Positions 1-63,224 of a DNA stretch of 64,000 bases are shown here, one piece after another. Under the pieces are notes generated by a model. It was not told where the DNA came from. It did no database searches and saw only the letters and a program-made list of their open reading frames with translations. The DNA comes from Escherichia phage mobillu, in sequence record MN850622.1. One strand, written 5' to 3'. The position numbers were made by a program, and so were the translations under genes. How positions within the stretch are numbered: the stretch's first letter is position 1; every line of letters begins with the position of its first letter.

Positions 1-851
1 AATCAAAATCAAGTCTTGCTCGTCCACAAATTATTGATGCAATTTTAGATGCACTGAAATTCAGCACAGACACTTATTTTGTAAGTCCTGAAACTGTTCG
101 TCGTGATTTCACTAAAGAATTCTATACGAAAGTTATTGATCGTTGTGAAAGCATTCAACCATTGATTGATTCATTTGGTAAAATCACACATGTGAACTAC
201 ACTAAGATTGGACGTCTGAAGCCAATGCTGAAACAAGCTTTAGAACACCTTATTCGTTATCATAACCGTTCTCAGGGACAGTACTCTGTTATTCATGGTG
301 ACCCGAACTTCAGTAATACTATGATTACTGATAACGGCGAAGTCAAGTTTATCGACCCTCGTGGATATTTTGGCGAAACCAAGATTTACGGGCCAAAATT
401 GTATGATGAAGCTAAAGTGCTTTATGCTGTTTCAGGTTATGATGAATTCAATGCTAATCCGACCTGGGGACAGTTTACTATTGATGAAACAACTTGTAAT
501 GTGACTATTAACATCAATCCATTAGTTTACAAATATGGAAAGATGAGTTCGTTTAACGAGTATCATCATTTGGCTGTAGCAATTATCTGGATTGCATTAG
601 GTGGTTATTTCAAGAATAATCCACTTAAAGCGGTAGCCGCATATTATAAAGGTATGGAACTTCTGACTAAGCAATTACGTAACATGGGCCGTGTACTTCA
701 AGACGGCTCTATTAGTTATGACGTAGCAGAACCTGTAACGGCTACTCTGATTACAAAAAATCCTGGTAAATGGGTACTAACTGATAAAGAAACTGGTGTT
801 TCCTATCGTCCAATCGGTGGCGATATCACTCATCAATGGGAACGAATCTAA
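1..851 (+). CDS. protein-kinase-like (APH/choline-kinase fold) phosphotransferase, 5-prime truncated at window edge
   Basis: Reading frame open from nt 3 with no stop and no ATG before the window start; catalytic-loop-like VIHGDPNFSNTMI and FIDPRGYFG motifs; stop TAA 849-851. Confidence 0.55.
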   Translation, partial: SKSSLARPQIIDAILDALKFSTDTYFVSPETVRRDFTKEFYTKVIDRCESIQPLIDSFGKITHVNYTKIGRLKPMLKQALEHLIRYHNRSQGQYSVIHGDPNFSNTMITDNGEVKFIDPRGYFGETKIYGPKLYDEAKVLYAVSGYDEFNANPTWGQFTIDETTCNVTININPLVYKYGKMSSFNEYHHLAVAIIWIALGGYFKNNPLKAVAAYYKGMELLTKQLRNMGRVLQDGSISYDVAEPVTATLITKNPGKWVLTDKETGVSYRPIGGDITHQWERI

Positions 852-1237
852 TGCACCGTGTAGAAAACATGCTTAATCTTTGTTTTGATGTCGATGATTG
901 TATAACAGAGTGGAATAACAATCGTGATTACGTGAACTTCAAACCAGACGTCGAAATGGTGTCTGCCATTAATGCCCTGTATGATGCAGGGCATACCATA
1001 ACGCTTTACACTGCTCGCGGTATGAAGTCAGTAGGTCCTGGTCGTATAGCAATTGACATTCTCCCAAGTCTGATTCAGAACTTGGCAAACATTGGCTTGA
1101 AGTACCATAATTTGCTAACACATAAACCAGTATATGATTGGATTATCGACGACAAAGCTATGCGTCCTGACGAATTCAAAGCTCTTATGAATAAAGGCGA
1201 ATTCGAAACATTTAAATCATATAAACCAAATCTATAA
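851..1237 (+). CDS. small HAD-superfamily-like phosphatase (possible 5-prime(3-prime)-nucleotidase type)
   Basis: TAATG overlap with upstream stop; N-terminal FDVDDC (DxD) motif, TLYTARG, and C-terminal K...IIDDK resembling HAD motifs I-IV; alternative start 836. Confidence 0.5.
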   Translation: MHRVENMLNLCFDVDDCITEWNNNRDYVNFKPDVEMVSAINALYDAGHTITLYTARGMKSVGPGRIAIDILPSLIQNLANIGLKYHNLLTHKPVYDWIIDDKAMRPDEFKALMNKGEFETFKSYKPNL

Positions 1238-1294
1238 TAATTTAAGTAAGACCTGCAAAAACCATCGCATCAATTAACGTGAGATGCAAAAAAA

Positions 1295-2455
1295 ATGAAT
1301 ACTTTTAAAATCGGAACGAATTTTGATTTAGCTCTTCTTGATAAAATCGTAGAGCTCAATAAAACTTATCCTAATAGCTTGATAAACGAAGTATACGGCT
1401 CTACAAGAGAAATGGCTTTTGTAGCAGCCAGACCTGATTTTAGGCTTCCTGACGTTGACAAAAAGATGTTAGAAGATTACGTTAAACGTTGTAACGAATT
1501 AGGTATTTGCTTTAACTATACACTCAACACGATAAATCCTGGTTCAAAAAGAGAACTAGTTGAGTGGAAGAAGAAAGCTATTCAGGATTATGTTCAGTAT
1601 CTTTGGTCAATAGGCGTATGGCGTATTACTATCGCTAACCCTGTTGTTATGGAAATTGTTCGTGAAGTCAATAAAGACATTGAGATTGAAGTTTCAACAA
1701 TTCTACATGTCGATGCTGTAACTCAAATCAAATACTTGCATGACCAGTATAATATCAAAAAGGTCTGCTGTGGAATTCATAAGAACCGTTCAGTTTCTTT
1801 CCTGAAGCGTGCAGCAGAGTTTTGCAATAAGAACAATATAATATTTGAAGTTCTTGTAAATGAGTTCTGTTCTAATGCTGGTAAAGGGTATACAACACAT
1901 TGTAGCTATCGTGACTCTTGCTATATTTTCCATAGTACTGATGTTACAGCTGATGATGCTAAATCCTTAAACGGATATCCTATGCAGCACTGTATTAAAG
2001 CTCGTGATACAGACCCATTTAACTGGTTGAGAACTCGTTTTGTTCGTCCTCAAGATTTGAAACTTTATAATGATATTGGTATCACTCAATTCAAAGTTTC
2101 AGGACGTACAGGTAGCACAGACTACATTTTGAAAGTTCTTGAAGCATACGCTTCTGAAAAGTTTGAAGGTAATTTGTTAGAACTGTGGAAGCCTTTAGAG
2201 ACTATTTTCACTCTTGAAAATGAGACCGAGTTTTCACATACGGTAAATATTGAAACCTCTTTGTTAGATGGCTTTTTAGAAAAAAGGTGGTTCAGACATC
2301 CAGATTTCGATTGTGCTAATGAAATCTGCGGGACGACGTGTACATATTGTGAAAGATATTATAAACGTCAGTTATCTAAAAATGGGTTATCAGAAAATTC
2401 TATATCTATTATTGATATAACTAACTCTGATGACGCTTTGAGGTACCCAGAATGA
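1295..2455 (+). CDS. peptidase U32-family protein (RlhA/TrhP/UbiU-like putative Fe-S prephenate-dependent hydroxylase)
   Basis: 386 aa; N-terminal layout and FKVSGRTGSTDY segment resemble U32 KIEGR region; multiple Cys incl. C-terminal CxxxxCxxxCxxC; assignment from memory of family motifs. Confidence 0.5.
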   Translation: MNTFKIGTNFDLALLDKIVELNKTYPNSLINEVYGSTREMAFVAARPDFRLPDVDKKMLEDYVKRCNELGICFNYTLNTINPGSKRELVEWKKKAIQDYVQYLWSIGVWRITIANPVVMEIVREVNKDIEIEVSTILHVDAVTQIKYLHDQYNIKKVCCGIHKNRSVSFLKRAAEFCNKNNIIFEVLVNEFCSNAGKGYTTHCSYRDSCYIFHSTDVTADDAKSLNGYPMQHCIKARDTDPFNWLRTRFVRPQDLKLYNDIGITQFKVSGRTGSTDYILKVLEAYASEKFEGNLLELWKPLETIFTLENETEFSHTVNIETSLLDGFLEKRWFRHPDFDCANEICGTTCTYCERYYKRQLSKNGLSENSISIIDITNSDDALRYPE

Positions 2456-2691
2456 TTTCTAGAAAAACTTTTAACCACCAACTTAATGAAGAGATTTTGA
2501 CTATGAAAATTAACAGCAACGAACAAATTCTTAAAAAGGCCCTTATGGGCCTGTTTGAAACTAAAGCGGCTAAAGTGATTAAAGGACCTGTTCAATTGGA
2601 ATACTACGCTGATGCATTTCTTCATAGTGTTCTTGGAAGTATCGATGCTGAAGCTTTACGTTATATCAACATTGTCAAGAAATTCAAATAA
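2452..2691 (+). CDS. hypothetical protein
   Basis: ATGA start/stop overlap with upstream gene; 79 aa; no recognisable motif. Confidence 0.45.
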   Translation: MISRKTFNHQLNEEILTMKINSNEQILKKALMGLFETKAAKVIKGPVQLEYYADAFLHSVLGSIDAEALRYINIVKKFK

Positions 2692-2714
2692 GCTTTACGA
2701 ATTGAGTATATAAT
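2692..2714 (+). promoter_or_regulatory. putative middle promoter for gene 42 (MotA box GCTTTA + TATAAT)
   Basis: aGCTTTAcgaattgagtaTATAAT, box-to--10 gap 11 nt. Confidence 0.35.
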
Positions 2715-2733
2715 AAATTGTATTGAGGTAAAC

Positions 2734-3450
2734 ATGGGAAAACATAACACAATGAAATATATCAAAGCCGCAGATTTTCAAACCGCATTTAAAGCAGTCA
2801 ATCGTGAAATTTTAGAAAACCCGGAATTCGTAACTGATTCTCGTATTGGACGTTGTAATGAAATTGGGTCTATGACAGTAGTTGTTGACACTCCATCATC
2901 ATTCAAAATGACCGACCCACGTATTAACCGCATCTCTTATGAATACGCCGAAGATTTCTGGAAGTTTATGATTTCTGGTGGTACCAACGCAGAAGAAGCG
3001 TTTAAGGCATATCCTAATGTCGCTAAATTTATTTCTAAACCAAAATCAGATGTTTTGCCGGCGAACTTCAACACTTTCTACGGTCCTCGCATTGCGGCCC
3101 AATTACCAGCTCTTCTAAAAGAACTTAAAGAGAAGCCTAACTCCCGAAGAGTTGTGTTCCAAATTCTAGAAAGTTCTGATCAGGCTTTGCTTGATTCAGA
3201 CGAAACGCTTGAATATCCATGTACTGACTCAGTGACTTATTATATTCGTGATGGTAAGCTTTATACCCACTGTCATATGCGTTCTCAGAACTGTGCTGTT
3301 GTTATGCAGTTGGATTTTTATCTCCAAGGAAAATTACTTCATTATATCGCTAACGAATGTGGTGTAGAAGTTGGTGATTATACTCATACCATGGTAAGTG
3401 CCCATGTGTTTGAACGTGATTTTGATTATGTTAAAGGATTCCTTGACTAA
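2734..3450 (+). CDS. 42: dCMP hydroxymethylase (thymidylate-synthase superfamily), gene 42 homolog
   Basis: GAGGT RBS; SRR and YPCTD catalytic-Cys motif, MRSQN motif, Asp at position +31 from catalytic Cys (equivalent to T4 gp42 Asp179 / TS Asn177); syntenic with T4 gene 42 next to uvsX. Confidence 0.75.
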   Translation: MGKHNTMKYIKAADFQTAFKAVNREILENPEFVTDSRIGRCNEIGSMTVVVDTPSSFKMTDPRINRISYEYAEDFWKFMISGGTNAEEAFKAYPNVAKFISKPKSDVLPANFNTFYGPRIAAQLPALLKELKEKPNSRRVVFQILESSDQALLDSDETLEYPCTDSVTYYIRDGKLYTHCHMRSQNCAVVMQLDFYLQGKLLHYIANECGVEVGDYTHTMVSAHVFERDFDYVKGFLD

Positions 3451-4349
3451 TGGCTATTTTCCGCGTACCAATCTTGAGTATGCGGTCTTATGAAACTGGA
3501 CAGTATGCTATCCTTAAGGATGGCAACTTCCAACTTCATTTGCACCGTGCTAATCCAGGTGATGTGATTACATATCCACGTAATGCATCTGATATTAAAG
3601 AATGCGAACGTCTTTTCCCAGAATTTAAGTTTGTTCCATTATGGTATAAAGATAACGCGTATAACACTCGTAAATATTTCTGGTCTGAAAATGAATTTGT
3701 GGTTGATTCATTAATTGCTTATTATGATTGTGATTTTCTAATCACAGATATCACCGGATATGACGGTGCTTTTGATGTAGAATTCAATTTCAATATCACT
3801 GCAGACCCTAATAAACCACGTTTTTATATTGACGAATTCTTAAAAACCGACATGTTGTCGGTTAATCGTTCACTTCAAACTACTGTGTTGAACGAACGTC
3901 AAAAAGAAGTGCTGGTTAACGCAGGTGCAGATGGTAATAAGATTATCGTAACGCAGAAAGTTATACGTCCTTCCATCATGCAGCGTCTTGTAGGTGATTT
4001 GGCTCCTATTCATCTAGATGGTATTTTTCATCCATTTCGAATTAGCGACCCGTGCTATCGTTTTGAACAAGTGGTTGAATGTGCAATTCAATTAGGCCAA
4101 CCGCTTTATATAACCGATCCAAATAATAGCTTCGACAGAAATAAGTATCCTGAAGAAGCGCTGATTCGAATTTTTAAACCAACTAAAACTGAGTACTATC
4201 AAATTCTTAAAGGACGTCCGAAAATTCAATATTTCGAAAATCCTGAAGAAGTATTCCATCCAGGTCTTGGTGAGTTCATCTACTTTAATGCTTTAATTTC
4301 TTCGCCGTATAATATACCTAAATATGAAGATGTCGTAATCGAGGAATAA
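3450..4349 (+). CDS. hypothetical protein in beta-gt syntenic slot (possible transferase)
   Basis: TAATG coupling to gene 42; 299 aa; no recognisable similarity to T4 beta-glucosyltransferase by eye. Confidence 0.5.
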   Translation: MAIFRVPILSMRSYETGQYAILKDGNFQLHLHRANPGDVITYPRNASDIKECERLFPEFKFVPLWYKDNAYNTRKYFWSENEFVVDSLIAYYDCDFLITDITGYDGAFDVEFNFNITADPNKPRFYIDEFLKTDMLSVNRSLQTTVLNERQKEVLVNAGADGNKIIVTQKVIRPSIMQRLVGDLAPIHLDGIFHPFRISDPCYRFEQVVECAIQLGQPLYITDPNNSFDRNKYPEEALIRIFKPTKTEYYQILKGRPKIQYFENPEEVFHPGLGEFIYFNALISSPYNIPKYEDVVIEE

Positions 4350-4350
4350 A

Positions 4351-4899
4351 ATGGCTAAAATTATTTTAGTAGATGGCCCAGATAATGCTGGTAAAACAAC
4401 TTTCATTAATGACATAATGGAAATTAGTGAAAGATATGTAAAGATTGATTTCCCTAAACGAACAGTTGATGGGCGTTTCGATGTTAAGTCTCGAAATGAA
4501 GTTGGCTGCTTCGAAACGATGTTGAATTATTTAGACCCTACTAAGATTTATCTGTTAGACCGTGGATATATTAGTAACTGGGTTTATGGACGTATTCGAC
4601 AAGATGCGGACTCGGTTCTTGACGTTTATGAACAGGATTATGTTCGTCTTTGCCAAAACCATGATGTGTTCACAATTATTTTAACACGTAACGAAATGAC
4701 TGAAAGTTTTGAAGACGACCTTATTACTTTGTCTTCATTCGGTTTTAATACAGTCATTTCACATTTTGAAGAGTTTGCAATTCATAACAAAATCCAAACG
4801 TATCAATTACTTAATCATGATGGTGCTAACAAAGTTATAGGATTTAATGCAAGCGAACGTAATTATTTGATTACAGAAATTATCAAATGGGCTCGTTAA
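4351..4899 (+). CDS. P-loop nucleotide/nucleoside kinase-like protein (TMPK/dNK-like)
   Basis: Walker A VDGPDNAGKTT near N-terminus; LDRGYISNWVYG resembles DR(Y/H) motif of thymidylate/deoxynucleoside kinases. Confidence 0.6.
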   Translation: MAKIILVDGPDNAGKTTFINDIMEISERYVKIDFPKRTVDGRFDVKSRNEVGCFETMLNYLDPTKIYLLDRGYISNWVYGRIRQDADSVLDVYEQDYVRLCQNHDVFTIILTRNEMTESFEDDLITLSSFGFNTVISHFEEFAIHNKIQTYQLLNHDGANKVIGFNASERNYLITEIIKWAR

Positions 4900-4919
4900 G
4901 AGCCATTTAAAGTTTTAAA

Positions 4920-4944
4920 TGCTGTATAACCCTTAGTATATAAT
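4920..4944 (+). promoter_or_regulatory. putative middle promoter for uvsX (MotA-box-like TGCTGTA + TATAAT)
   Basis: aaaTGCTGTAtaacccttagtaTATAAT. Confidence 0.3.
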
Positions 4945-4997
4945 CATCTTATCTTTTAAACATGAGTAAAATATAATGATGCCTATGGAAAAATACA

Positions 4998-6170
4998 ATG
5001 TCTGATTTAAAATCTCGTTTGATTAAAGCTTCTACTTCTAAAATGACTGCAGACTTGACTAAGTCTAAGCTGTTTAATAATCGCGATGAAGTCCCTACTC
5101 GTATTCCAATGTTGAATATTGCACTAGGTGGTGCACTGAATGCCGGGTTGCAATCAGGCTTGACTATTTTTGCTGCTCCTTCTAAACACTTTAAAACGTT
5201 GTTTGGACTGACCATGGTTGCAGCATATATGAAGAAATATAAAGATGCAATCTGTTTGTTTTATGACTCAGAATTCGGTGCTTCGGAATCTTATTTTCGT
5301 TCAATGGGTGTTGATTTAGACCGTGTAGTTCATACTCCGATTCAATCGGTCGAACAACTTAAGGTTGATATGACTAATCAGCTTGACGCGATTGAACGCG
5401 GTGATAAAGTTATTATCTTTATTGACTCGATTGGTAATACTGCATCTAAGAAAGAAACCGAAGATGCATTGAACGAGAAAGTTGTAGGTGATATGTCTCG
5501 TGCTAAGGCACTTAAATCTCTGTTCCGCATTGTGACCCCGTATCTGACTATTAAAGATATTCCGTGTGTTGCAATTAACCATACAGCAATGGAAATCGGC
5601 GGATTGTATCCTAAAGAGATTATGGGCGGTGGTACAGGTATTCTTTATTCTGCCAACACGGTATTTTTTATCTCTAAACGTCAGGTTAAAGAAGGTACAG
5701 AATTGACCGGTTATGACTTCACGTTGAAAGCAGAAAAATCTCGCACAGTTAAAGAGAAATCTACTTTCCCGATCACGGTTAATTTTGATGGCGGTATTGA
5801 CCCATTCAGTGGCTTGTTAGAAATGGCAACTGAAATTGGTTTTGTAGTTAAGCCTAAAGCTGGTTGGTATGCTCGTGAATTCCTTGACGAAGAAACAGGT
5901 GAAATGATTCGTGAAGAAAAATCATGGCGTGCTAAAGCTACTGATTGTGTAGAATTCTGGGGACCTTTGTTTAAACACAAACCTTTCCGAGATGCAATTG
6001 AAACTAAATATAAACTAGGTGCTATCTCTTCTATTAAAGAAGTTGATGACGCTGTTAACGACCTTATTAATTGCAAAGCAACAACTAAAGTTCCGGTTAA
6101 AACTTCTGATGCTCCATCTGCAGCAGATATAGAAAACGACCTTGACGAAATGGAAGATTTCGATGAATAA
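4998..6170 (+). CDS. uvsX: UvsX RecA-like recombinase
   Basis: 390 aa; strong N-terminal and core similarity to T4 UvsX; synteny uvsX-40-41. Confidence 0.95.
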   Translation: MSDLKSRLIKASTSKMTADLTKSKLFNNRDEVPTRIPMLNIALGGALNAGLQSGLTIFAAPSKHFKTLFGLTMVAAYMKKYKDAICLFYDSEFGASESYFRSMGVDLDRVVHTPIQSVEQLKVDMTNQLDAIERGDKVIIFIDSIGNTASKKETEDALNEKVVGDMSRAKALKSLFRIVTPYLTIKDIPCVAINHTAMEIGGLYPKEIMGGGTGILYSANTVFFISKRQVKEGTELTGYDFTLKAEKSRTVKEKSTFPITVNFDGGIDPFSGLLEMATEIGFVVKPKAGWYAREFLDEETGEMIREEKSWRAKATDCVEFWGPLFKHKPFRDAIETKYKLGAISSIKEVDDAVNDLINCKATTKVPVKTSDAPSAADIENDLDEMEDFDE

Positions 6171-6504
6171 TCTCGATGATTTAAATCTAGAAATCGTTGA
6201 TGAATCCCCTTCTTCGGAAGGGGAAGACATTCGCAAAGAACGAGTGTTTAATGAATCTCTTAAAATTGTCCGTTCAGCAATGGAAAATGTCATTCAAGAG
6301 ATTCTGATTACACTTGAAGACGGTTCCCATCATATAGTCTATATTACAAAACTAGACTGGGTTGATGGTAAAATCGTAATGGACTTTGCAGTTCTTGACC
6401 AGGACAGAAAAGCAGAACTTGCACCGCACGTTGAAAAATGTGTTACAATGCAAGTACAACAAGCTTTTAATGAACGAACCAAGAAAAAATTTAAATTCTT
6501 TTAA
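6163..6504 (+). CDS. 40: gp40-like head vertex assembly chaperone
   Basis: 113 aa, ATG overlapping uvsX stop; position between uvsX and 41 as in T4. Confidence 0.5.
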   Translation: MNNLDDLNLEIVDESPSSEGEDIRKERVFNESLKIVRSAMENVIQEILITLEDGSHHIVYITKLDWVDGKIVMDFAVLDQDRKAELAPHVEKCVTMQVQQAFNERTKKKFKFF

Positions 6505-6513
6505 GGAGTTATC

Positions 6514-7956
6514 GTGGTAGAAATTATTTTGTCTCATCTAGTATATGACCAGGCTTATTTTTCTAAGGTCTGGCCTTATATGGATTCTGAGTATTTTGAG
6601 CGTGGACCGGCAAAAAATGTCTTTAAAATTATAAAGAGCCACGTTAACGAATATAATGCAATGCCATCTATCAATGCGTTAAAGGTGGCTTTAGATAACA
6701 GTTCTTTAACTGAAGCCGAATATAAAGGAACTTCAGACCTAATTGAAAAATTGGCTGATACTCCTGAAGACCATGAATGGTTGGTTAAAGAAACTGAGAA
6801 ATATGTCCAGCAAAAAGCGATGTATAATGCTACATCCAAAATCATTGAGATTCAGTCTAATGCTGAACTACCTCCAGAACAACGTAACAAGAAAATGCCT
6901 GACGTAGGAGCTATTCCTGATATTATGCGTCAAGCACTTTCAATTTCGTTTGATAGTTATGTTGGTCATGACTGGATGGAAGACTACGAAGCACGCTGGC
7001 TTTCTTATCTAAATAAAGCACGTAAGGTCCCGTTCAAATTAAACATTTTGAATAAAATCACTAAAGGTGGTGCTGAAACAGGTACACTAAACGTTTTAAT
7101 GGCCGGTGTTAACGTTGGTAAATCTTTAGGCCTTTGTTCACTTGCTGCAGATTATCTTCAAACAGGTCATAACGTTCTTTATATTTCTATGGAAATGGCT
7201 GAAGAAGTTTGTGCTAAGCGTATAGATGCAAACATGCTTGACGTATCACTCGATGATATCGATGATGGTAACGTATCTTATGCTGAATATAAAGCCAAGA
7301 TGGAAAAATGGCGTTCAAAAACAACATTAGGACGTTTAGTAGTTAAACAGTATCCCACTGGTGGAGCTAATGCTAATACATTTCGTGCATTGCTTAATGA
7401 GTTAAAACTTAAGAAGAACTTTGTGCCATCTGTAATCATGGTTGATTACTTAGGTATTTGTGGGTCTTGTCGTATCAGAGTTTACACTGAAAATAGCTAC
7501 ACATTAGTTAAAGCTATCGCAGAAGAACTTCGTGCATTAGCAGTAGAATCTGAAACAGTTCTATGGACTGCAGCTCAAGTAGGACGGGCAGCATGGGATG
7601 CTTCGGATATGAACATGAGCGATATTGCAGAATCAGCAGGTTTACCAGCAACGGCAGATTTCATGTTGGCCGTAATTGAAACCGAAGAACTTGCACAAGC
7701 TGAACAACAACTTATCAAACAAATCAAATCACGATACGGCGATAAGAATAAGTGGAATAAATTCCTGATGGGTGTACGTAAAGGCAACCAGAAATGGATT
7801 GAGATTGAGCAAGAAGGCATGAACACACCTAACACAGTAAATGAAAACGCAGGTGCTCAGATGCGTCAGGCAGAGGTGAATCGTACGGAACGCGTAGGTA
7901 AAGCCAAAGCAACACGTGCTGACCTAGATAGCTTAGCCAATGAGTTAAAATTTTAA
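6514..7956 (+). CDS. 41: gp41 replicative DnaB-like helicase
   Basis: 480 aa, GTG start after AAGGAG; N-terminus MVEIILSHL...YFSKVWPYMDSEYFE matches T4 gp41; Walker A GVNVGKS. Confidence 0.95.
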   Translation: MVEIILSHLVYDQAYFSKVWPYMDSEYFERGPAKNVFKIIKSHVNEYNAMPSINALKVALDNSSLTEAEYKGTSDLIEKLADTPEDHEWLVKETEKYVQQKAMYNATSKIIEIQSNAELPPEQRNKKMPDVGAIPDIMRQALSISFDSYVGHDWMEDYEARWLSYLNKARKVPFKLNILNKITKGGAETGTLNVLMAGVNVGKSLGLCSLAADYLQTGHNVLYISMEMAEEVCAKRIDANMLDVSLDDIDDGNVSYAEYKAKMEKWRSKTTLGRLVVKQYPTGGANANTFRALLNELKLKKNFVPSVIMVDYLGICGSCRIRVYTENSYTLVKAIAEELRALAVESETVLWTAAQVGRAAWDASDMNMSDIAESAGLPATADFMLAVIETEELAQAEQQLIKQIKSRYGDKNKWNKFLMGVRKGNQKWIEIEQEGMNTPNTVNENAGAQMRQAEVNRTERVGKAKATRADLDSLANELKF

Positions 7957-7962
7957 TAAAAA

Positions 7963-7983
7963 GGAGACTTCGGTCTCCTTTCG
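7963..7983 (+). terminator. UUCG-tetraloop hairpin terminator after gene 41
   Basis: ggagaCTTCGgtctcc followed by short T-run. Confidence 0.55.
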
Positions 7984-7985
7984 GG

Positions 7986-8015
7986 GTTTACATCTTCCTC
8001 TAGGCATGATATGAT
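7986..8015 (+). promoter_or_regulatory. T4-type early promoter
   Basis: GTTTAC -35, TATGAT -10, spacer 18; directly after gene 41 terminator hairpin. Confidence 0.5.
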
Positions 8016-8044
8016 GTACTTACACCAACCAAGAGGAAAACATT

Positions 8045-8419
8045 ATGAATATGTCTCAAGCAATTTTTACTGTAATCACCGAAAACACAACTGTTGAAGT
8101 AGTTTCTCCACTGGCAACCTACGTTATTCTTGCTCCTAAAACTATTGTATCTCGTATGGAAAACATGGGCAAACGTATCGTACAAATAGTTGGAGCCGGA
8201 AATCAAAAACTTGATTATCTACGAACCATCAAAGCTTATGAACATTTCCAACTCGAAAAAGGTTCTCCTATCCAGGTAGAACTCGTAAATGGTGATATCG
8301 TTCGAGCAATGTTCCATCATTTCTATGCATTGAATGACCCATCTAAAGCGGTTCGTTTAATTGCATACGACGCAAACCAAAACGAAATCAACGCAGATGT
8401 ATCTAAATTACGTTTTTAA
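8045..8419 (+). CDS. hypothetical protein
   Basis: 124 aa ORF downstream of early promoter; no motif recognised. Confidence 0.5.
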   Translation: MNMSQAIFTVITENTTVEVVSPLATYVILAPKTIVSRMENMGKRIVQIVGAGNQKLDYLRTIKAYEHFQLEKGSPIQVELVNGDIVRAMFHHFYALNDPSKAVRLIAYDANQNEINADVSKLRF

Positions 8420-8448
8420 GTTTACTTCTCCAGTAGTTGTGTTATTAT
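8420..8448 (+). promoter_or_regulatory. T4-type early promoter with 10-bp inverted repeat around -10
   Basis: GTTTAC ... TATTAT; ccagtagttg / caactactgg flank the -10. Confidence 0.6.
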
Positions 8449-8474
8449 AGATCTATCAACTACTGGAGAACAAA

Positions 8475-8792
8475 ATGAAAACCATCGATTGTAAAGCAGA
8501 ATTTAAGATTTTTTATCACGGTTCAAGTAGTTCAGCTAACATCGAAAACATGCTTTGTCCTCCTGAAGAAACAGGAGTTCTGTCTGAAACTGGACGTAAG
8601 AAAAACTTGGATCGTGTATTCTTTACTGAAGATATCGGTTTAGCAAAGATTTATGCAGGACGAGCAGCACGCTCTTATGGAGGTGAACCACGTCTCTATC
8701 GAGTAATTTCTCCGGTAGATGTAGTTCAAATGAATGATACTAAAGGCGCTACAGTTTATCACGCTGAATGGGCATTTTGCGAGGAAATATGA
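8475..8792 (+). CDS. Arr-like (rifampin ADP-ribosyltransferase fold) small protein
   Basis: 105 aa; FYHGSSSSANIENML and RVFFTEDIGLAKIYA resemble Arr H-G-[ST]...YF(T/S) core; own early promoter with 10-bp inverted repeat. Confidence 0.45.
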   Translation: MKTIDCKAEFKIFYHGSSSSANIENMLCPPEETGVLSETGRKKNLDRVFFTEDIGLAKIYAGRAARSYGGEPRLYRVISPVDVVQMNDTKGATVYHAEWAFCEEI

Positions 8793-8977
8793 GCAAATTA
8801 ACTAAAGTTACTTTTATCGGTTGGTTTAAAAGCGGTGAGATGTTCACTAAAGATATCATGTTATCAGGTGATCGCGAAGAAATCGAGTGGGTTACGGTAC
8901 AACTTGCTGAAGTGAACAAAGCATTAGTTAAAGCATTTGTTAATGACGAGAAAGTTTTCGAAGCAGATTTTCGATAA
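8789..8977 (+). CDS. hypothetical small protein, translationally coupled to Arr-like gene (size/position compatible with dmd)
   Basis: ATGA overlap with upstream stop, GAGGAA upstream; 62 aa; T4 dmd is a ~60 aa gene in the same 41-61 interval. Confidence 0.4.
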   Translation: MSKLTKVTFIGWFKSGEMFTKDIMLSGDREEIEWVTVQLAEVNKALVKAFVNDEKVFEADFR

Positions 8978-8989
8978 TTTTAAATAGCT

Positions 8990-9019
8990 GTTTACAAGCC
9001 CCACATACTGTGTTACTAT
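8990..9019 (+). promoter_or_regulatory. T4-type early promoter
   Basis: GTTTAC + 18 + TACTAT, then CTATCAAC leader. Confidence 0.55.
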
Positions 9020-9047
9020 CTTTCTATCAACTACAGAGGAAATTGAA

Positions 9048-9416
9048 ATGAAAAAATTAATCGCTTTAGCAATGGTATTTGGATTAACCGGATGTGGTGC
9101 CCATGGCTTTATCCCTAATAATGTTGGCCAACTGATTTATAATCCGAATGTTAAACAGTACGACCAACCTAAAGTTGAAGTGGAAGACCCGGTTACTGTA
9201 GGTAATCGAATGATTCAAGCTGATGCCCATGCTCAACGTTATCGTGACTCTGATACTGTAGCATTGTCAAAAGAACAGCGCGTTAAAGAACATTGCTTAC
9301 AGGCTACTGAAATCGCATTCATTCGCTATGTTGAAACAACCGGTAAAGAGCCTACCCAGAAACAAATCGCGAATAACTACGTCCAGTGTATTGAACGTTT
9401 AAACAAATTTAATTAA
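9048..9416 (+). CDS. putative lipoprotein
   Basis: Signal peptide MKKLIALAMVFGLTGC with lipobox LTGC; 122 aa. Confidence 0.6.
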   Translation: MKKLIALAMVFGLTGCGAHGFIPNNVGQLIYNPNVKQYDQPKVEVEDPVTVGNRMIQADAHAQRYRDSDTVALSKEQRVKEHCLQATEIAFIRYVETTGKEPTQKQIANNYVQCIERLNKFN

Positions 9417-12765: not shown

Positions 12766-13287
12766 ATGGCACACTTTAACGAATGTTCACAACTTATTTC
12801 TGGTGTTGATAAAGCAGAAGAAGCTTATTTTAATGCTCTGATTCACGAAGATAAAGACCCACTGCAGGTAATGCTTGATATGCAGAAATCTTTACAGGTT
12901 CGTCTGGCAAATGACAAGCCTGAACATAACAAACATCCTGATGAATTGGCCACTGCTGGCGATGTTGTTGATTGGCTGCGTAATCAGAAAGATTATATTG
13001 ATGATGAATTTCGTGAACTGCTGACTTCACTTGGTGGTATGTCCAACGGTGAAAAAGCTGCCAGCTCTGTGTGGAAGCCATGGAAAGCACAACATGCTGA
13101 ATATCGTAATCGTCGTATTGATGAACTGTCTCCTGAAGACCAGCTCGAAATTAAATTCGAAATGATTGATATTCTGCACTTCGTTCTGAACATGTTCCAA
13201 GGTCTGGGTCTTTCTGCCGAAGAAATCTTTAAACTGTATTATCTGAAGAATGCTGAAAACTTTGCTCGTCAAGACCGAGGTTATTAA
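12766..13287 (+). CDS. 56: gp56 dCTPase/dUTPase (MazG-like dCTP pyrophosphatase)
   Basis: 173 aa; MAHFNEC...DKDPLQVMLDMQ...EFRELLTSLG...ILHFVLNMF near-identical pattern to T4 gp56. Confidence 0.9.
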   Translation: MAHFNECSQLISGVDKAEEAYFNALIHEDKDPLQVMLDMQKSLQVRLANDKPEHNKHPDELATAGDVVDWLRNQKDYIDDEFRELLTSLGGMSNGEKAASSVWKPWKAQHAEYRNRRIDELSPEDQLEIKFEMIDILHFVLNMFQGLGLSAEEIFKLYYLKNAENFARQDRGY

Positions 13288-25269: not shown

Positions 25270-26370
25270 ATGAAAGTTATGTTTATCCCATCTCGCGCAG
25301 TCCCATTTAACCCAGAACGTGTACAAGGTGGTCTTGAAGCAGTACATTTAAATGTGTTGAAATATCTTGTGTCCATCGGTGCTGATATTGATTATATCGG
25401 CTTTGATAATGACACGTTTGGTGACTGGAAGGTTAATCATCATCCTGTTGGTCATCTGACTAAATTCAGTCTAGGTATGAGTTATACTATGGCTCGTAAG
25501 ATTGTTGAACTAGCCGGCATTAATGAGTACGATTTCGTTGTTACAATGGAACCGACCAAACTAACCGTTCAGGCAATTAAAGACGCAGGTCTCTCTAAAG
25601 TTCATAAGAATTTTATGGCAACACCATTTGAACCAGTATCTCGTGGCATTGTTCAAATTTGGGACCAGACTATTCAAATTCATAAGAACGGTGGTAAGAG
25701 TTATGCTCCTACTAAAGCCTTCCGTGAATTTGAACGCAAATATTGTTATATGACTTCAGGTCTGACTGACAAAATTGATTATGATTATTGGCGAGCAAAT
25801 CCGTTGTTTGAAGCCGAAGATTATCCGGTTATTTGTTTGAATGATAAACCTGAAGTTCTTCCGGCGACTGATCTGATTATTAGTGCACAACGTTATGACA
25901 CTAAAATGCGTCGTACTGATGTTGCTCTTGAAGCGATTAAAGCACTAGGCGAAAATGGTGCAGGATACTGTCCTAGTAAATGGGCACCACCAGCTAAATA
26001 TCCTGTTATTATTGATGCTCCACACAGTGAAATCATGGAACGTCTTAAAATGGCTAAAGCACTTATTAATACGTGTCCTGACACAGGTACGGTAGAGAAT
26101 AGTTCTATTGAAGCCATCTCTAAAGGTGTCCCTGTAATCCAGTTAGTTTTTAAGGATTATCCTCATGCGACATTCGAATACGACCCGGATACTGTGCGTG
26201 TAGAAATTGATTCCTCTACTCCTAAGAAAGAAGTAGTTGCGCTTTACACAAAAGCTGTATTAGAATTCACTGACACATACGAAGCTCGAGTTAAACGTGC
26301 TGAAGCAGTATGGAAGAAATATAATCGAGATGCAGTTGTTGCGATGTGGGATAAAATCTTCACAGCGTAA
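25270..26370 (+). CDS. GT-B fold glycosyltransferase-like protein (candidate DNA hmC glycosyltransferase)
   Basis: 366 aa; N-terminal MKVMFIPSR...GGLE resembling GT4/T4 alpha-gt N-terminus; inserted between 39 and rIIA. Confidence 0.45.
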   Translation: MKVMFIPSRAVPFNPERVQGGLEAVHLNVLKYLVSIGADIDYIGFDNDTFGDWKVNHHPVGHLTKFSLGMSYTMARKIVELAGINEYDFVVTMEPTKLTVQAIKDAGLSKVHKNFMATPFEPVSRGIVQIWDQTIQIHKNGGKSYAPTKAFREFERKYCYMTSGLTDKIDYDYWRANPLFEAEDYPVICLNDKPEVLPATDLIISAQRYDTKMRRTDVALEAIKALGENGAGYCPSKWAPPAKYPVIIDAPHSEIMERLKMAKALINTCPDTGTVENSSIEAISKGVPVIQLVFKDYPHATFEYDPDTVRVEIDSSTPKKEVVALYTKAVLEFTDTYEARVKRAEAVWKKYNRDAVVAMWDKIFTA

Positions 26371-61650: not shown

Positions 61651-62643
61651 ATGTTACCTGTCGTCGGAAAACTTATTTCTCCAAAAGAACTGGCTGAGAT
61701 TATTCCTTTGTCGGAAGCTTACGCATCACAAGTGGCTTCTCATCGCGAACAAGTTAATTCGATTATGAACGGTGAAGACCCACGCAAACTTATTGTTGTA
61801 GGTCCTTGTTCAATTCATGACCCTATTGCTGCTGTTGAATACGGCAAACGTCTGGCTGAACTTCAAACTCGTCTTCCTAATGTTCTGTTAGTGATGCGCG
61901 TTTATTTTGAAAAGCCTCGAACTACCGTAGGTTGGAAAGGTCTTGTAAATGATCCATATCTTGACGGAAGTTTTGATATGAACCACGGTCTTATAGTTGC
62001 ACGAACATTGTGTCGTAAACTTCTACGTATGGGACTTCCATTAGCAACTGAAGTATTAGACCCATTCACGATTAAGTATCTTTCTGGTATTTTCTCATGG
62101 GTTGCTATTGGCGCCCGTACGACTGAAAGTCAGACACATCGTGAAATTGCTTCAGGTCTACCGATGTGCGTAGGCTTCAAGAACGCAACCAATGGTTCTA
62201 TTAAAGTAGCTACAGACGCGATGTATAGTGCCGCCAGGCCTCATCGGTATATGGGTATGGACGTCGATGGTACTGTAGGCATTGTTGAAGCTGAAGGTAA
62301 TCAGAATACGCATATCGTATTGCGTGGCGGGACCAACGGCCCGAACTATCATTCTTCTGATATTCAAGAAGCTTCTAACAAAGCAAGTGCAGTAGGTCTG
62401 AATCATTATGTAATGGTTGACTGTAGCCATGCAAACGCTGCTGGGCATTATAGCAATCAAATTGGTATTGGTAAAAATTTAGCAGCTAATGATTTGGTCA
62501 AAGGAATTATGATAGAATCATTCCTACATGAAGGAAATCAAAAAATTTCTAATAATATGTCCTATGGCGTTTCCGTTACCGATGCGTGCATCAGTTGGGA
62601 ACAAACTAAAGAGCTGTTAACTTATATTAATAAGGTTCAATAA
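61651..62643 (+). CDS. 3-deoxy-D-arabino-heptulosonate 7-phosphate (DAHP) synthase, class I (AroG-like)
   Basis: 330 aa; VGPCSIHDP, RVYFEKPRTTVGWKGLVNDP, GARTTESQTHRE, ESFLHEGNQ, TDACISWE closely track E. coli AroG; lacks about 20 N-terminal residues. Confidence 0.9.
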   Translation: MLPVVGKLISPKELAEIIPLSEAYASQVASHREQVNSIMNGEDPRKLIVVGPCSIHDPIAAVEYGKRLAELQTRLPNVLLVMRVYFEKPRTTVGWKGLVNDPYLDGSFDMNHGLIVARTLCRKLLRMGLPLATEVLDPFTIKYLSGIFSWVAIGARTTESQTHREIASGLPMCVGFKNATNGSIKVATDAMYSAARPHRYMGMDVDGTVGIVEAEGNQNTHIVLRGGTNGPNYHSSDIQEASNKASAVGLNHYVMVDCSHANAAGHYSNQIGIGKNLAANDLVKGIMIESFLHEGNQKISNNMSYGVSVTDACISWEQTKELLTYINKVQ

Positions 62644-63224
62644 TGAAAGCTAGCACATATCTTCAAATTGCTTATTTGATTTCTCAAGAATCAAAATGTT
62701 GTTCATGGAAAGTTGGTGCCGTCATTGAAAAAGATGGACGCATTATTTCTACAGGTTATAATGGCTCTCCTTCAGGTGGTACAAACTGTTGCGAACATGC
62801 ATCCGAAAACGGTTGGTTGAAGAATAAACCAAGCCCGGTCATCGTTGCTGGGCATAAAGAAGGCACTACAGCATTTGGACGGGTGGATAATTTTGTTTTG
62901 GCTAAAGAACATCGGGCCGCTCATAGTGCATGGTCTGCTAATAATGAAATCCATGCTGAACTGAATGCAATTTTATTTGCAGCTCGTAAAGGTAATTCTA
63001 TTGAAGGTGCTACGTTATATACGACGCTTTCTCCGTGTCCTGATTGCACTAAAGCTATTACACAGTCAGGTATTAAAAAGGTTGTATATGCAGAATTATA
63101 CGACCGATCTCCTGAAAATTGGGCAGACATTCTAAAACAAGCCGGTATTGAAGTAATTCAGTACTCTCGTAATAATCTTCGTTCTCTGAATTGGGAACAA
63201 ATCCGAAACTTTTGTGGTGAATAA
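62643..63224 (+). CDS. cd: dCMP deaminase
   Basis: 193 aa; HAELNAI and SPCPDCTKAI zinc-binding deaminase motifs; TAATG-coupled. Confidence 0.9.
   Translation: MKASTYLQIAYLISQESKCCSWKVGAVIEKDGRIISTGYNGSPSGGTNCCEHASENGWLKNKPSPVIVAGHKEGTTAFGRVDNFVLAKEHRAAHSAWSANNEIHAELNAILFAARKGNSIEGATLYTTLSPCPDCTKAITQSGIKKVVYAELYDRSPENWADILKQAGIEVIQYSRNNLRSLNWEQIRNFCGE

Follow-up and report, generated by a model that had tools for sequence, protein, structure and literature searches.

The uvsX-proximal cluster of Escherichia phage mobillu as the probable core of an RB69-type cytosine arabinosylation pathway, with a U32-family protein as a candidate oxygen-independent hydroxylase

Our analysis of a 64,000-nucleotide stretch of Escherichia phage mobillu DNA (MN850622.1; here called the window) indicates, with a probability of about 0.9, that positions 1-4899 hold the core of the RB69-type (Mosigvirus) pathway, in which every virion cytosine is converted to 5-O-arabinofuranosyl-5-hydroxycytosine in mono- and di-arabinosyl forms. 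The window comes from an RB69-like Mosigvirus and is 98.6% identical to RB69; across positions 1-5000, nucleotide identity is 98.6% with RB69 and 99.0% with a second Mosigvirus, and gene order is shared. The assignment of the modified base in mobillu DNA draws on the sequence of these genes and on results obtained with RB69 and HY126. The RB69 gp45-gp55 pathway and the HY126 Afh pathway yield mono- and di-arabinosyl-5-hydroxycytosine and not a 5-hmC derivative (PMC13326640), and both the chemistry and the enzymology of this base have been published (PMC13326640, PMC13390438, PMC6024577). An earlier note on this DNA correctly recognized a non-T4 cytosine hypermodification module, but its suggestion that the system is novel does not hold, as a 2018 paper (PMC6024577) had already flagged the module and work in 2025-2026 dissected it (PMC13326640; also He et al., Nat Chem Biol 2026, and Mahler et al., Cell Host Microbe 2025, as cited in PMC13326640). 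Compared with T4, mobillu has a different module at this locus, and its DNA is expected to contain neither plain cytosine nor glucosyl-hmC.

All seven open reading frames of the region are present on the plus strand and are as tightly packed as had been proposed. A partial kinase-domain frame ends at 851, its TAA stop (849-851) overlapping a TAATG, and is followed by a HAD-family phosphatase frame (836-1237, 133 aa; homologous to RB69 gp51 and HY126 AfhF), which in RB69's record begins instead at an alternative start, position 851 here. The U32-family frame (1295-2455, 386 aa; RB69 gp50) and a 79-aa frame (2452-2691; RB69 gp49) share an ATGA overlap, the frame in the gene-42 slot (2734-3450, 238 aa; RB69 gp48 homolog) and a 299-aa frame (3450-4349; RB69 gp46:47, intact here) share a TAATG overlap, and a single base separates the latter from a TMPK-like P-loop kinase frame (4351-4899, 182 aa; RB69 gp45), downstream of which lies uvsX (4998-6170). 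The order at the matching T4 locus is 43-imm.1-imm-42-b-gt-segA-uvsX; the block 43-imm-42-beta-gt-uvsX given in the earlier note has the right order but omits segA.

The central enzyme is not the retained gp42-type dCMP hydroxymethylase that had been assumed. The product of 2734-3450 belongs to the thymidylate-synthase superfamily and is a flavin- and O2-dependent 5-hydroxy-dCMP synthase, as it matches the crystallized enzyme (PDB 9IQC/9IR2/9IQU, E=8e-161, about 98% identity) and shares only 25% identity with T4 gp42. It keeps the catalytic Cys and has Asn at ThyA position 169, where both T4 gp42 and ThyA have Asp, together with Asp at 177 and Glu at 143; this D169N/N177D/L143E combination is the published signature of 5hodCMP synthases. 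Both RB69 gp48 and the HY126 enzyme, each sharing about 98% identity with the window protein, have been shown to hydroxylate dCMP at C5 with flavin and O2, and for gp48 the formation of 5hodC from O2 is documented by activity and 18O2 labelling (PMC13326640).

These results bear directly on the reading in which a retained gp42 makes 5-hydroxymethylcytosine and the module processes it further, with kinases activating the hydroxymethyl group as in the kinase-dependent hypermodification of 5-hmdU. A thymidylate-synthase homolog in the gene-42 slot, two kinase-like proteins plus a phosphatase, and the initial report of RB69 DNA as arabinosyl-hmC all speak for it. The divergence from gp42 and the Asn169 signature speak against it, as does RB69 itself, where gp48 produces 5hodC from O2, NMR and MS place the arabinose in ether linkage directly at cytosine C5, and the older hmC assignment has been termed erroneous (PMC13390438). 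Moreover, the substrates of the kinase domain and the phosphatase are arabinose phosphates, and because the former acts on a sugar phosphate, the 5-hmdU analogy is inapplicable to it. The hydroxymethylcytosine reading is already refuted for RB69, and we give it almost no credence for mobillu.

In the arabinosylation pathway, nucleotide supply would begin with gp56 dCTPase (12766-13287, plus strand; 99.4% identical to RB69p028), which, following the T4 paradigm, would furnish dCMP and keep dCTP from the pool. The synthase would then hydroxylate dCMP at C5, and a phage dNMP kinase, a step demonstrated for RB69 gp159 (PMC13326640), together with host NDK would deliver 5hodCTP for incorporation by the polymerase. 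A dCMP deaminase (62643-63224, plus strand; Pfam dCMP_cyt_deam_1, 2e-26) adds a context of pyrimidine pool control, so that both nucleotide enzymes named in the earlier note are indeed in the window. For Bas46, a collinear relative, the annotation includes Alc and endonuclease II, corresponding to the alc-like and denA-like genes of that note.

The left part of the region accounts for the sugar donor, and the suggestion that these genes might make an unusual donor proved apt, since the kinase domain and phosphatase act toward UDP-arabinofuranose (PMC13326640; PDB 9IQW). Positions 1-851 encode the C-terminal 282 codons of a 561-aa bifunctional enzyme whose gene is cut by the window edge; nucleotide identity to RB69 and Bas46 is 98.6-98.7% across the whole stretch, and Bas46 has the complete gene. 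The fragment is the kinase domain of the RB69 gp52:53/HY126 AfhE homolog, an arabinose-5-P 1-kinase according to PMC13326640. Its description as a protein-kinase-like phosphotransferase agrees with its HGDPNFSN (HGDxxxxN) and IDPRG motifs and with a PHROG_4098 alignment over residues 283-559 of 559, the Pfam matches (APH, Fructosamin_kin, EcKL) being weak and sub-threshold. The HAD assignment likewise stands (PDB 9IQW, E=8e-88; 1XPJ, 5e-10; NCBIfam TIGR01689 capsule biosynthesis phosphatase at 4e-13, under the model's cut-off), and this protein converts Araf-1,5-bisphosphate to Araf-1-phosphate according to PMC13326640. Donor synthesis would accordingly run from ribulose-5-P to arabinose-5-P through an isomerase just past the window's left edge, to Araf-1,5-P2 through the kinase domain, to Araf-1-P through the phosphatase, and to UDP-Araf through the UDP-arabinofuranose pyrophosphorylase that forms the off-window N-terminal nucleotidyltransferase domain of the bifunctional enzyme. 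The steps of donor synthesis were demonstrated for HY126 AfhE/AfhF (PMC13326640).

No T4-type alpha- or beta-glucosyltransferase is recognizable in sequence, as had been observed, but two GT-B transferases are present, and one of them is the 299-aa protein previously listed as unknown, i.e., the very transferase thought to be missing. It is predicted to be the first (base-proximal, alpha) arabinosyltransferase, acting on the 5-OH. Addition of the second arabinose is likewise predicted for the product of 25270-26370 (plus strand, between gp39 topoisomerase and rIIA), a homolog of RB69 gp3/ORF003c that is 98.6% identical to RB69p003 and matches PDB 9IQZ/9IR0, "phage HY126 glycosyltransferase" (E=4e-247). 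Individual transferases showed no activity on 5hoC-DNA, and the stage of the first transfer was left unsettled by the authors (PMC13326640). In a study of Shewanella phages, TH1_063, the homolog of the 299-aa protein, formed UDP-xylose in vitro and transferred nothing to DNA or dCMP.

The adjacent P-loop kinase is TMPK-like, as had been proposed (PHROG_761 thymidylate kinase, 2e-45), with invariant P-loop residues (G9, D11, N12, G14, K15) and an invariant D70-R71; profile matches to PDB entries are weak (YorR, 3.5e-4; TMPK, 1e-3). It occurs in Konradin, PspYZU05, Thanatos-2 and Bp7, and in every glycosyl-5hoC phage examined its gene is conserved beside those for the synthase and first transferase. 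One may ask whether the 299-aa transferase adds the first arabinose to 5hodCMP and this kinase phosphorylates arabinosyl-5hodCMP for polymerase entry, so that only the second arabinose is added on DNA. The three genes form a tightly coupled trio in the window that is also kept together in arabinose phages infecting Acinetobacter, Pseudomonas and Shewanella, as well as in RL38J1, which uses a hexose (PMC13326640), and a general dNMP kinase already handles 5hodCMP, which would leave the extra kinase without a job; the inactivity of single transferases on 5hoC-DNA fits as well. We nevertheless regard transfer at the nucleotide stage as unlikely, given that TH1_063 of Thanatos failed to glycosylate dCMP or dCTP (the substrates tried, 5hodCMP not being among them), that T4 glucosylation is post-replicative, and that a polymerase may not accept so bulky a substrate as 5-O-arabinosyl-dCTP.

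The U32-family assignment is secure (Pfam PF01136, 42 bits versus a cut-off of 22.4), and the idea of a putative hydroxylase was a reasonable lead that our follow-up strengthened. The protein has ten conserved cysteines, of which C203 and C209 align with Fe-S cysteines of UbiU, UbiV, TrhP and RlhA. Among E. coli paralogs, profile comparison places it nearest to RlhA, which makes 5-hydroxycytidine in rRNA; UbiU and TrhP match only weakly. Enzymes of the U32 family work without O2 and depend on prephenate (PMC10990095; PMC5727448). With 36 synonymous changes versus 1 nonsynonymous change, the gene is under strong purifying selection. We tentatively propose, at a little short of even odds, that the U32 protein hydroxylates cytosine at C5 as an Fe-S enzyme that depends on prephenate and needs no O2. 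It would make 5-hydroxycytosine during anaerobic infection, where the flavin/O2 enzyme cannot work, and would represent an oxygen-free route to the modified base. We found no paper in the open literature proposing such a role; He et al. 2026 and Mahler et al. 2025, which lay beyond that search, may already assign or exclude one.

DAHP synthase catalyzes the first step of the shikimate pathway, toward chorismate and prephenate. The window encodes such an enzyme (61651-62643, plus strand; Pfam PF00793, 2e-75; NCBIfam aroFGH equivalog, 428.6 bits versus a cut-off of 173.2; PDB AroF 6AGM, 5e-105), its stop overlapping the dCMP deaminase start, and we infer that it would raise prephenate supply for the U32 reaction. 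Phage DAHP synthase occurs in 212 phage records, with genus counts nearly equal to those of U32. In other genera, a phage chorismate mutase next to U32 would raise this supply further. Across about twelve genera, 51-54 records have such a gene adjacent to U32 or to the synthase. In Entb_45 and LC53 it encodes a genuine CM_2 enzyme and overlaps the stop codon of U32, and in Thanatos-2 the U32-mutase pair was relocated as a unit, with U32 still inside the cluster. Also in favor of the proposal, cluster-bearing phages of Acinetobacter (57 records), Rhizobium/Agrobacterium and Pseudomonas lack U32, a contrast in host lifestyle that comprises few independent lineages.

It is also quite possible, although we would not place our first bet on it, that U32 does something in the cluster other than hydroxylate the base. 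It could reduce a sugar or a heterocycle, act as a peptidase, or assist the flavin enzyme as an accessory protein or redox partner, with chorismate mutase and DAHP synthase providing for aromatic amino acids in general. In PMC13326640 (Table 1), gp50 bears the label "sugar or heterocycle reductase" without discussion, and beyond 5D88 the fold search returns nothing more specific than a TIM barrel. Bp7 and other Dhakaviruses of E. coli carry the cluster, and modify their DNA, without U32 or DAHP synthase, which shows that U32 is dispensable in this host. No chorismate mutase was found in mobillu itself, and the distributions of DAHP synthase and U32 match imperfectly, as Yersinia phages have U32 and chorismate mutase with DAHP synthase apparently missing and four Acinetobacter records have DAHP synthase without U32. 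Against such a role, the published donor pathway requires no reduction step, chorismate mutase travels with U32, and all U32 proteins to which a function has been assigned are tied to hydroxylation that uses prephenate and no O2, one of them yielding 5-hydroxycytosine.

That U32, chorismate mutase and DAHP synthase instead hydroxylate RNA, as a phage analog of TrhP or RlhA acting on phage or host tRNA U34 or rRNA C2501 with an incidental position in the cluster, seems to us improbable. Characterized nucleic-acid U32 enzymes act only on RNA, and RlhA is the best profile match, but at 386 aa versus 653 aa the phage protein is missing RlhA's large C-terminal extension. Among the matches listed or inspected from 50,697 phage records, all U32 loci are in phages with the 5hoC synthase cluster, and no match was reported from those hmC-type T4-like phages that also carry tRNA genes. 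U32 stays within the cluster even after rearrangement, and relatives of about 55% identity in large phage-like contigs sit beside genes of deoxynucleotide metabolism (dCMP deaminase, TMPK, NT5C, dNK).

The 79-aa frame downstream of U32 belongs to PHROG_8601, annotated as of unknown function, has no match in Pfam or NCBIfam and is present in 162 phage records. In other genera a chorismate mutase holds this slot or a neighboring one, but the 79-aa product is no such enzyme. In Yersinia phiR1-RT and Serratia 92A1 the frame coexists with a separate chorismate mutase gene. Constraint on this frame looks relaxed, with 6 synonymous versus 7 nonsynonymous changes and a frameshift in HY126.

The block at positions 1-4899 is the core part of the published RB69-type pathway; the finding of the earlier note is real yet already known, and its first interpretation proves to be partly right. 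Translation of the window recovered all seven of its ORFs on the + strand with the boundaries assigned to them there, and the tight packing it had claimed is present: the U32 gene and the 79-aa ORF share an ATGA, the synthase and the 299-aa ORF share a TAATG, and one base separates the 299-aa ORF from the P-loop kinase. The uvsX gene (4998-6170) follows the block, and the base composition of the block is ordinary (GC 0.32-0.39). Since the T4 reference order at this locus is 43-imm.1-imm-42-b-gt-segA-uvsX, the description of the block as non-T4 holds for everything except the thymidylate-synthase-family gene.

In nucleotide comparisons, positions 1-5000 share 98.6% identity with RB69 and 99.0% with another Mosigvirus, and approximately 150 phage records span at least 80% of this stretch. 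Gene content and gene order match those of RB69 and HY126, with nucleotide identities of 98-99% for the individual genes, and near-identical HY126 versions of the synthase, the phosphatase, and the second transferase have been crystallised; differences are at the strain level only, with the 299-aa ORF intact in the window but split in the old RB69 record. The ORF truncated at the left end (kinase domain, 1-851) is a 561-aa gene in relatives, where a 47-aa ORF, an arabinose-5-P (A5P) isomerase-like gene, and the DNA polymerase lie upstream. The left 40% of the cluster, comprising the isomerase and the nucleotidyltransferase domain, is beyond the left edge of the window and was seen in near-identical relatives only, while the kinase domain and HAD phosphatase of the UDP-arabinofuranose supply set are present in the window. 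One BASEL record already annotates cluster genes as "UDP-arabinose biosynthesis." The RefSeq RB69 record (NC_004928) splits two genes, ORF047c/046c (8448-9348) and ORF053c/052c (4165-5851), because of old sequencing errors; the 299-aa ORF is unbroken in the window (3450-4349) and the 561-aa gene in Bas46, and ORF053c/052c was shown to be a single 561-aa gene by Thomas et al. in 2018 (PMC6024577). The same record uses the misleading product names "peptidase," "phosphoheptose isomerase," and "thymidylate kinase." Corrected annotation is a practical gain, as many GenBank records still say dCMP hydroxymethylase, peptidase, phosphoheptose isomerase, GlmU, or RNA polymerase binding protein.

Thomas et al. 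reported arabinose on RB69 DNA and singled out an eight-gene non-T4 module (PMC6024577). The RB69 modification is beta-D-Araf-(1-3)-alpha-D-Araf (Araf, arabinofuranose), ether-linked to 5-hydroxy-dC rather than to hmC (Lee et al., NAR 2026, PMC13326640), and an independent paper termed the earlier hmC assignment erroneous (PMC13390438). Mono- or di-arabinosyl-5-hydroxy-dC replacing dC was shown in the virion DNA of RB69 and of Mosigvirus NP (PMC13326640, PMC13390438). In RB69, the thymidylate-synthase homolog gp48, which has a loosely bound FMN-like flavin, makes 5-hydroxy-dCMP (5hodCMP) with oxygen from 18O2, and gp159 phosphorylates the product; gp55 corresponds to the isomerase, gp52:53 to a bifunctional A5P 1-kinase/UDP-Araf pyrophosphorylase (AfhE), and gp51 to the Araf-1,5-P2 phosphatase (AfhF), and gp46:47 and gp3 are predicted to be the arabinosyltransferases (PMC13326640). 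The base chemistry proposed in the earlier note, a 5-hmC derivative, was therefore wrong, since the modification sits on 5-hydroxy-dC without a hydroxymethyl group (PMC13326640), and its claim of novelty falls with the publication of the RB69/HY126 pathway. He et al. (Nat Chem Biol 2026) and Mahler et al. (Cell Host Microbe 2025) are reportedly further sources for the RB69/HY126 Afh pathway.

The role that had been given to the kinase domain by analogy with 5-hmdU phages does not stand either. In 5-hmdU hypermodification, a kinase phosphorylates the hydroxymethyl group of the base on DNA, and the gene clusters join a thymidylate-synthase homolog, kinases, and group-transfer enzymes. The cluster in the window has the same three kinds of genes, but its kinase domain, as in AfhE-type enzymes, is a sugar 1-kinase acting on A5P, and its base has no hydroxymethyl group, which together rule out kinase-dependent hypermodification of the 5-hmdU type. 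The module accounts for the resistance of RB69-like therapeutic coliphages to many restriction enzymes and CRISPR nucleases and also for the sensing of RB69-like phages by type IV systems, such as BrxU/GmrSD. What the present analysis adds is a corrected functional map of the window, structural support for the first transferase, and a testable hypothesis that involves the U32 protein, chorismate mutase (CM), and DAHP synthase (DAHPS).

The synthase (2734-3450) matches PDB entries 9IQC/9IR2/9IQU (E = 8e-161) and is 25% identical to T4 gp42 (E 3e-13), which was not among the 60 PDB matches listed of the 106 found with this query. It carries MRSQN where T4 gp42 has MRSND and ThyA has QRSCD, placing Asn at ThyA-169; further signature residues are Asp at ThyA-177 (N177D) and Glu at ThyA-143 (L143E), and the catalytic Cys is retained. 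Asn at ThyA Asp169 plus N177D is diagnostic of a 5hodCMP synthase (PMC13326640), and these residues, together with near-identity to the characterised enzymes, identify the protein as a 5hodCMP synthase of the RB69/HY126 type. Its low identity to gp42 and the Asn replacing Asp169 rule out a gp42-type dCMP hydroxymethylase, so gene 42 is not kept here as had been stated.

The HAD protein (836-1237) matches PDB 9IQW at 8e-88. Two GT-B transferases were located, one within the cluster and one between gp39 and rIIA (25270-26370); the latter, the second transferase, matches PDB 9IQZ at 4e-247. The first, the 299-aa protein, had no match in Pfam, NCBIfam, or PDB sequence searches, and its GT-B identity was found through its predicted structure only. 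The model is confident (pLDDT 95.2) and provides an independent structural confirmation of the predicted first transferase as a GT-B protein. TH1_063, a homolog of this protein in a Shewanella phage (3534-4436 of the Thanatos-2 locus L019), is reported to form UDP-xylose from UTP and xylose-1-P in vitro and to glycosylate neither DNA, dCMP, nor dCTP, with the natural acceptor, 5hodCMP or DNA containing 5-hydroxycytosine (5hoC), lying outside that assay (PMC12838424). This result conflicts with the prediction of a first arabinosyltransferase for 3450-4349 (PMC13326640). The TMPK-like kinase (4351-4899) falls in the phage "thymidylate kinase" PHROG and retains the P-loop and a DR pair. As its profile gave only weak PDB matches, centred on the P-loop, no substrate can be inferred from them; the RB69 counterpart, gp45, is given only as "nucleotide kinase," and gp49, the counterpart of the 79-aa ORF, goes unmentioned (PMC13326640).

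The pathway shares its logic with the hmC glucosylation of T4. Both occupy the slot between gene 43 and uvsX, both use a thymidylate-synthase homolog to alter dCMP before replication and a dCTPase (gp56, 12766-13287 in the window) to exclude dCTP, and in both, GT-B transferases decorate the new hydroxyl. Unlike in T4, this hydroxyl is directly on C5, without a methylene bridge, its formation uses flavin and O2 rather than folate, and the sugar is arabinofuranose from phage-made UDP-Araf instead of glucose from host UDP-glucose. The divergence extends to the proteins: the synthase is only distantly related to gp42, and the absence of a T4-type alpha- or beta-gt was correctly noted, no sequence homology to either being recognisable in the transferases.

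The U32 protein (1295-2455) is a bona fide member of its family (PF01136), with both the domain and the fold found. Its gene shows 36 synonymous versus 1 nonsynonymous codon change among Mosigviruses, a pattern like that of uvsX. In a set of 121 homologs, the most distant at 47% identity, ten cysteines, including a C-terminal CX4CX3CX2C motif, are 98-100% conserved. The two cysteines common to UbiU, UbiV, TrhP, and RlhA align with C203 and C209, and the conserved C192 and C233 are candidates for the other two 4Fe-4S ligands, in a loop that differs from known U32 enzymes. Among these four enzymes, a usable profile alignment was obtained with RlhA only (E 1.2e-5, 205 columns), and hhalign against UbiU and TrhP was not significant. 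The phage proteins share with these enzymes the U32 domain and show an aligned cysteine pair of candidate Fe-S ligands and a genomic link to prephenate supply, but they form a distinct subfamily of approximately 19% identity, with a shortened loop, extra conserved cysteines, and the C-terminal motif. RlhA is the 23S rRNA 5-hydroxycytidine synthase. Members of the U32 family are Fe-S proteins that have been implicated in hydroxylations needing no O2, in which prephenate donates the oxygen (PMC10990095, PMC5727448). The reaction that we propose for the phage protein, cytosine C5 hydroxylation, is that of RlhA, although the phage protein has no DUF3656 extension and its putative substrate is a deoxynucleotide or DNA.

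The simplest reading of these features, to which we assign a probability of roughly 40 to 45%, is that the U32 protein may be a prephenate-dependent, O2-independent cytosine-5 hydroxylase. It would make 5hodCMP, or 5-hydroxycytosine in DNA, without O2 and would back up the flavin- and O2-dependent synthase, which would be inactive during anaerobic infection. The pool of oxygen donor would be fed by a phage-encoded DAHPS and, in other genera, also by a CM translationally coupled to U32. It is conceivable, if a shade more doubtful, that the protein is the first DNA-directed prephenate-dependent U32 hydroxylase and allows phage DNA to stay completely modified when infection in the gut is anaerobic. 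In the published work on RB69, gp50 is labelled "sugar or heterocycle reductase" in a table entry only (PMC13326640), and our search of openly readable papers found none that connects this system with U32, prephenate, CM, or DAHPS.

The DAHPS gene (61651-62643, + strand) overlaps the start of the dCMP deaminase gene (62643-63224). Its product scores 428.6 bits against the aroFGH equivalog (cut-off, 173.2) and matches E. coli AroF at 5e-105, in an alignment that begins approximately 10 residues into AroF, indicating a shorter N terminus in the phage protein. DAHP synthase is the entry step towards chorismate and prephenate. A KDO8P synthase, which would use the A5P of the pathway, was considered for this DAHP_synth_1 protein and is ruled out by the aroFGH score and by AroF/AroG being its best PDB relatives. 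The gene has no T4 counterpart, and a published role for it was not found. It is present in 212 phage records, and its counts by genus are nearly those of U32 (U32/DAHPS: Escherichia, 136/124; Klebsiella, 26/25; Shigella, 14/12; Proteus, 7/7; Serratia, 7/6; Enterobacter, 4/4; Edwardsiella, 3/3).

U32 itself occurs in 221 phage records, whose hosts are all Enterobacterales or Shewanella, and the search gave no match in 57 Acinetobacter and approximately 25 Rhizobium/Agrobacterium records that carry the synthase. In Acinetobacter phage Konradin and Pseudomonas phage PspYZU05, inspection of the locus showed a cluster that is complete apart from U32. The Fisher probability of this host contrast is near 0.03, from a hand count in which approximately 10 lineages were taken as independent though they are not, and so small a number of independent lineages weighs against the hydroxylase reading. 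The same is true of Yersinia phages, which appear to have no DAHPS, of four Acinetobacter records with DAHPS and without U32, and of the E. coli Dhakaviruses, which have neither. An essential role of U32 for the pathway in E. coli is ruled out, since the Dhakavirus Bp7 keeps the cluster without it.

The cluster of Bp7 (3878-8589 of locus L007) is reduced, without U32, CM, or DAHPS, and its TMPK-like kinase gene has moved between those of the phosphatase and the synthase. A 166-aa ORF in the position of the isomerase has no SIS-domain match, and this lineage may therefore rely on host KdsD/GutQ for A5P. In Serratia phage LC53, a putative homing endonuclease gene (4352-4990 of locus L004) is inserted between the HAD phosphatase and U32 genes, in keeping with how variable the polymerase-uvsX interval of T4-like phages is known to be.

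A link to prephenate supply is also seen in relatives of the phage. In E. coli, prephenate comes via PheA and TyrA (PMC5727448). In Enterobacter phage Entb_45 (L005, 6158-6397) and in LC53 (L004, 6158-6502), a genuine CM gene (CM_2, 41-45 bits against a cut-off of 27) overlaps the stop codon of U32, and 51-54 records, drawn from about a dozen genera, have CM adjacent to either U32 or the synthase. In Thanatos-2 (CM at L019, 6134-6391), the U32-CM pair follows the TMPK-like kinase rather than preceding the synthase; the two genes are relocated yet together, so the pair moves as a unit. CM is absent from the phage of the window: two phage CMs used as tblastn queries had no match anywhere in the window, and DNA homology to CM-bearing relatives ends at the U32 stop codon. 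The 79-aa ORF in that position (2452-2691) is neither a CM nor a frameshifted CM remnant, candidates ruled out by these two results together with its having no Pfam or NCBIfam match; gp49 and a separate CM gene occur together in Yersinia phage phiR1-RT and Serratia phage 92A1. The ORF has changed much more quickly than the genes around it, with 6 synonymous and 7 nonsynonymous changes. In HY126, a frameshift leaves a CDS of 40 aa (L017, 5001-5123), and in several other Mosigvirus records, the ORF gives two-piece matches. The N terminus of the 114-aa CM protein of LC53 is weakly like that of gp49.

If the U32 protein is such a hydroxylase, a base-modification step would be duplicated for aerobic and anaerobic hosts, just as ribonucleotide reduction is. 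TrhO and TrhP (ho5U), UbiI/H/F and UbiU/V, and phage NrdAB and NrdDG offer parallels to the synthase and U32: the phages encode, next to each other, a flavin enzyme that needs O2 and a U32 protein, putatively with the same product. The hosts of these phages are facultative anaerobes, and the phages themselves possess ribonucleotide reductases of both the aerobic and the anaerobic kind. In contrast to those pairs, redundancy in these phages is inferred only, and some E. coli phages with the cluster have no U32 arm. The hypothesis would also give a concrete function to phage-encoded shikimate-pathway genes and a tractable soluble substrate to the still unreconstituted chemistry of prephenate-dependent hydroxylases, and because that substrate would be a small soluble nucleotide, it could possibly permit the first in-vitro assay of a U32 hydroxylase.

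A large metagenomic U32 clade, approximately 50-58% identical to the phage U32 proteins, is found in large phage-like contigs (L008, 8001-9083; L010, a 466-kb contig, 8001-9086; L011, 8001-9098 and 13227-14360). Some of these genes directly follow a dCMP deaminase gene and lie near thymidylate kinase, UDG, PolIII-alpha, and SSB genes. One contig has a U32 gene on either side of a set comprising NT5C, an NMN transporter, dNK, a radical-SAM gene, and a nucleoside deoxyribosyltransferase-like gene. Homologs of the 5hodCMP synthase were not visible within 8 kb of the U32 genes, and Pfam scans of the unknown neighbouring proteins gave nothing informative. U32 genes adjoining dCMP deaminase in very large phage-like contigs hint that anaerobic pyrimidine hydroxylation may be widespread in phages.

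Synthase, first transferase, and TMPK-like kinase are encoded as a coupled trio, which is conserved in RL38J1, a hexose user, and in arabinose-using phages from four host genera. Because the general dNMP kinase already phosphorylates 5hodCMP and no transferase was active alone on 5hoC-DNA (PMC13326640), it is possible to speculate that the first sugar goes on at the mononucleotide stage and that the extra kinase serves the glycosylated nucleotide, although we consider this order of events unlikely. Two longer intergenic gaps of the block, at 2692-2733 before the synthase gene and at 4900-4997 before uvsX, both hold TATATAAT-like strings (GTATATAATAAAT and GTATATAATCAT) that are candidate T4-type promoters. 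These strings suggest that the trio is a transcription unit separate from the sugar genes and U32.
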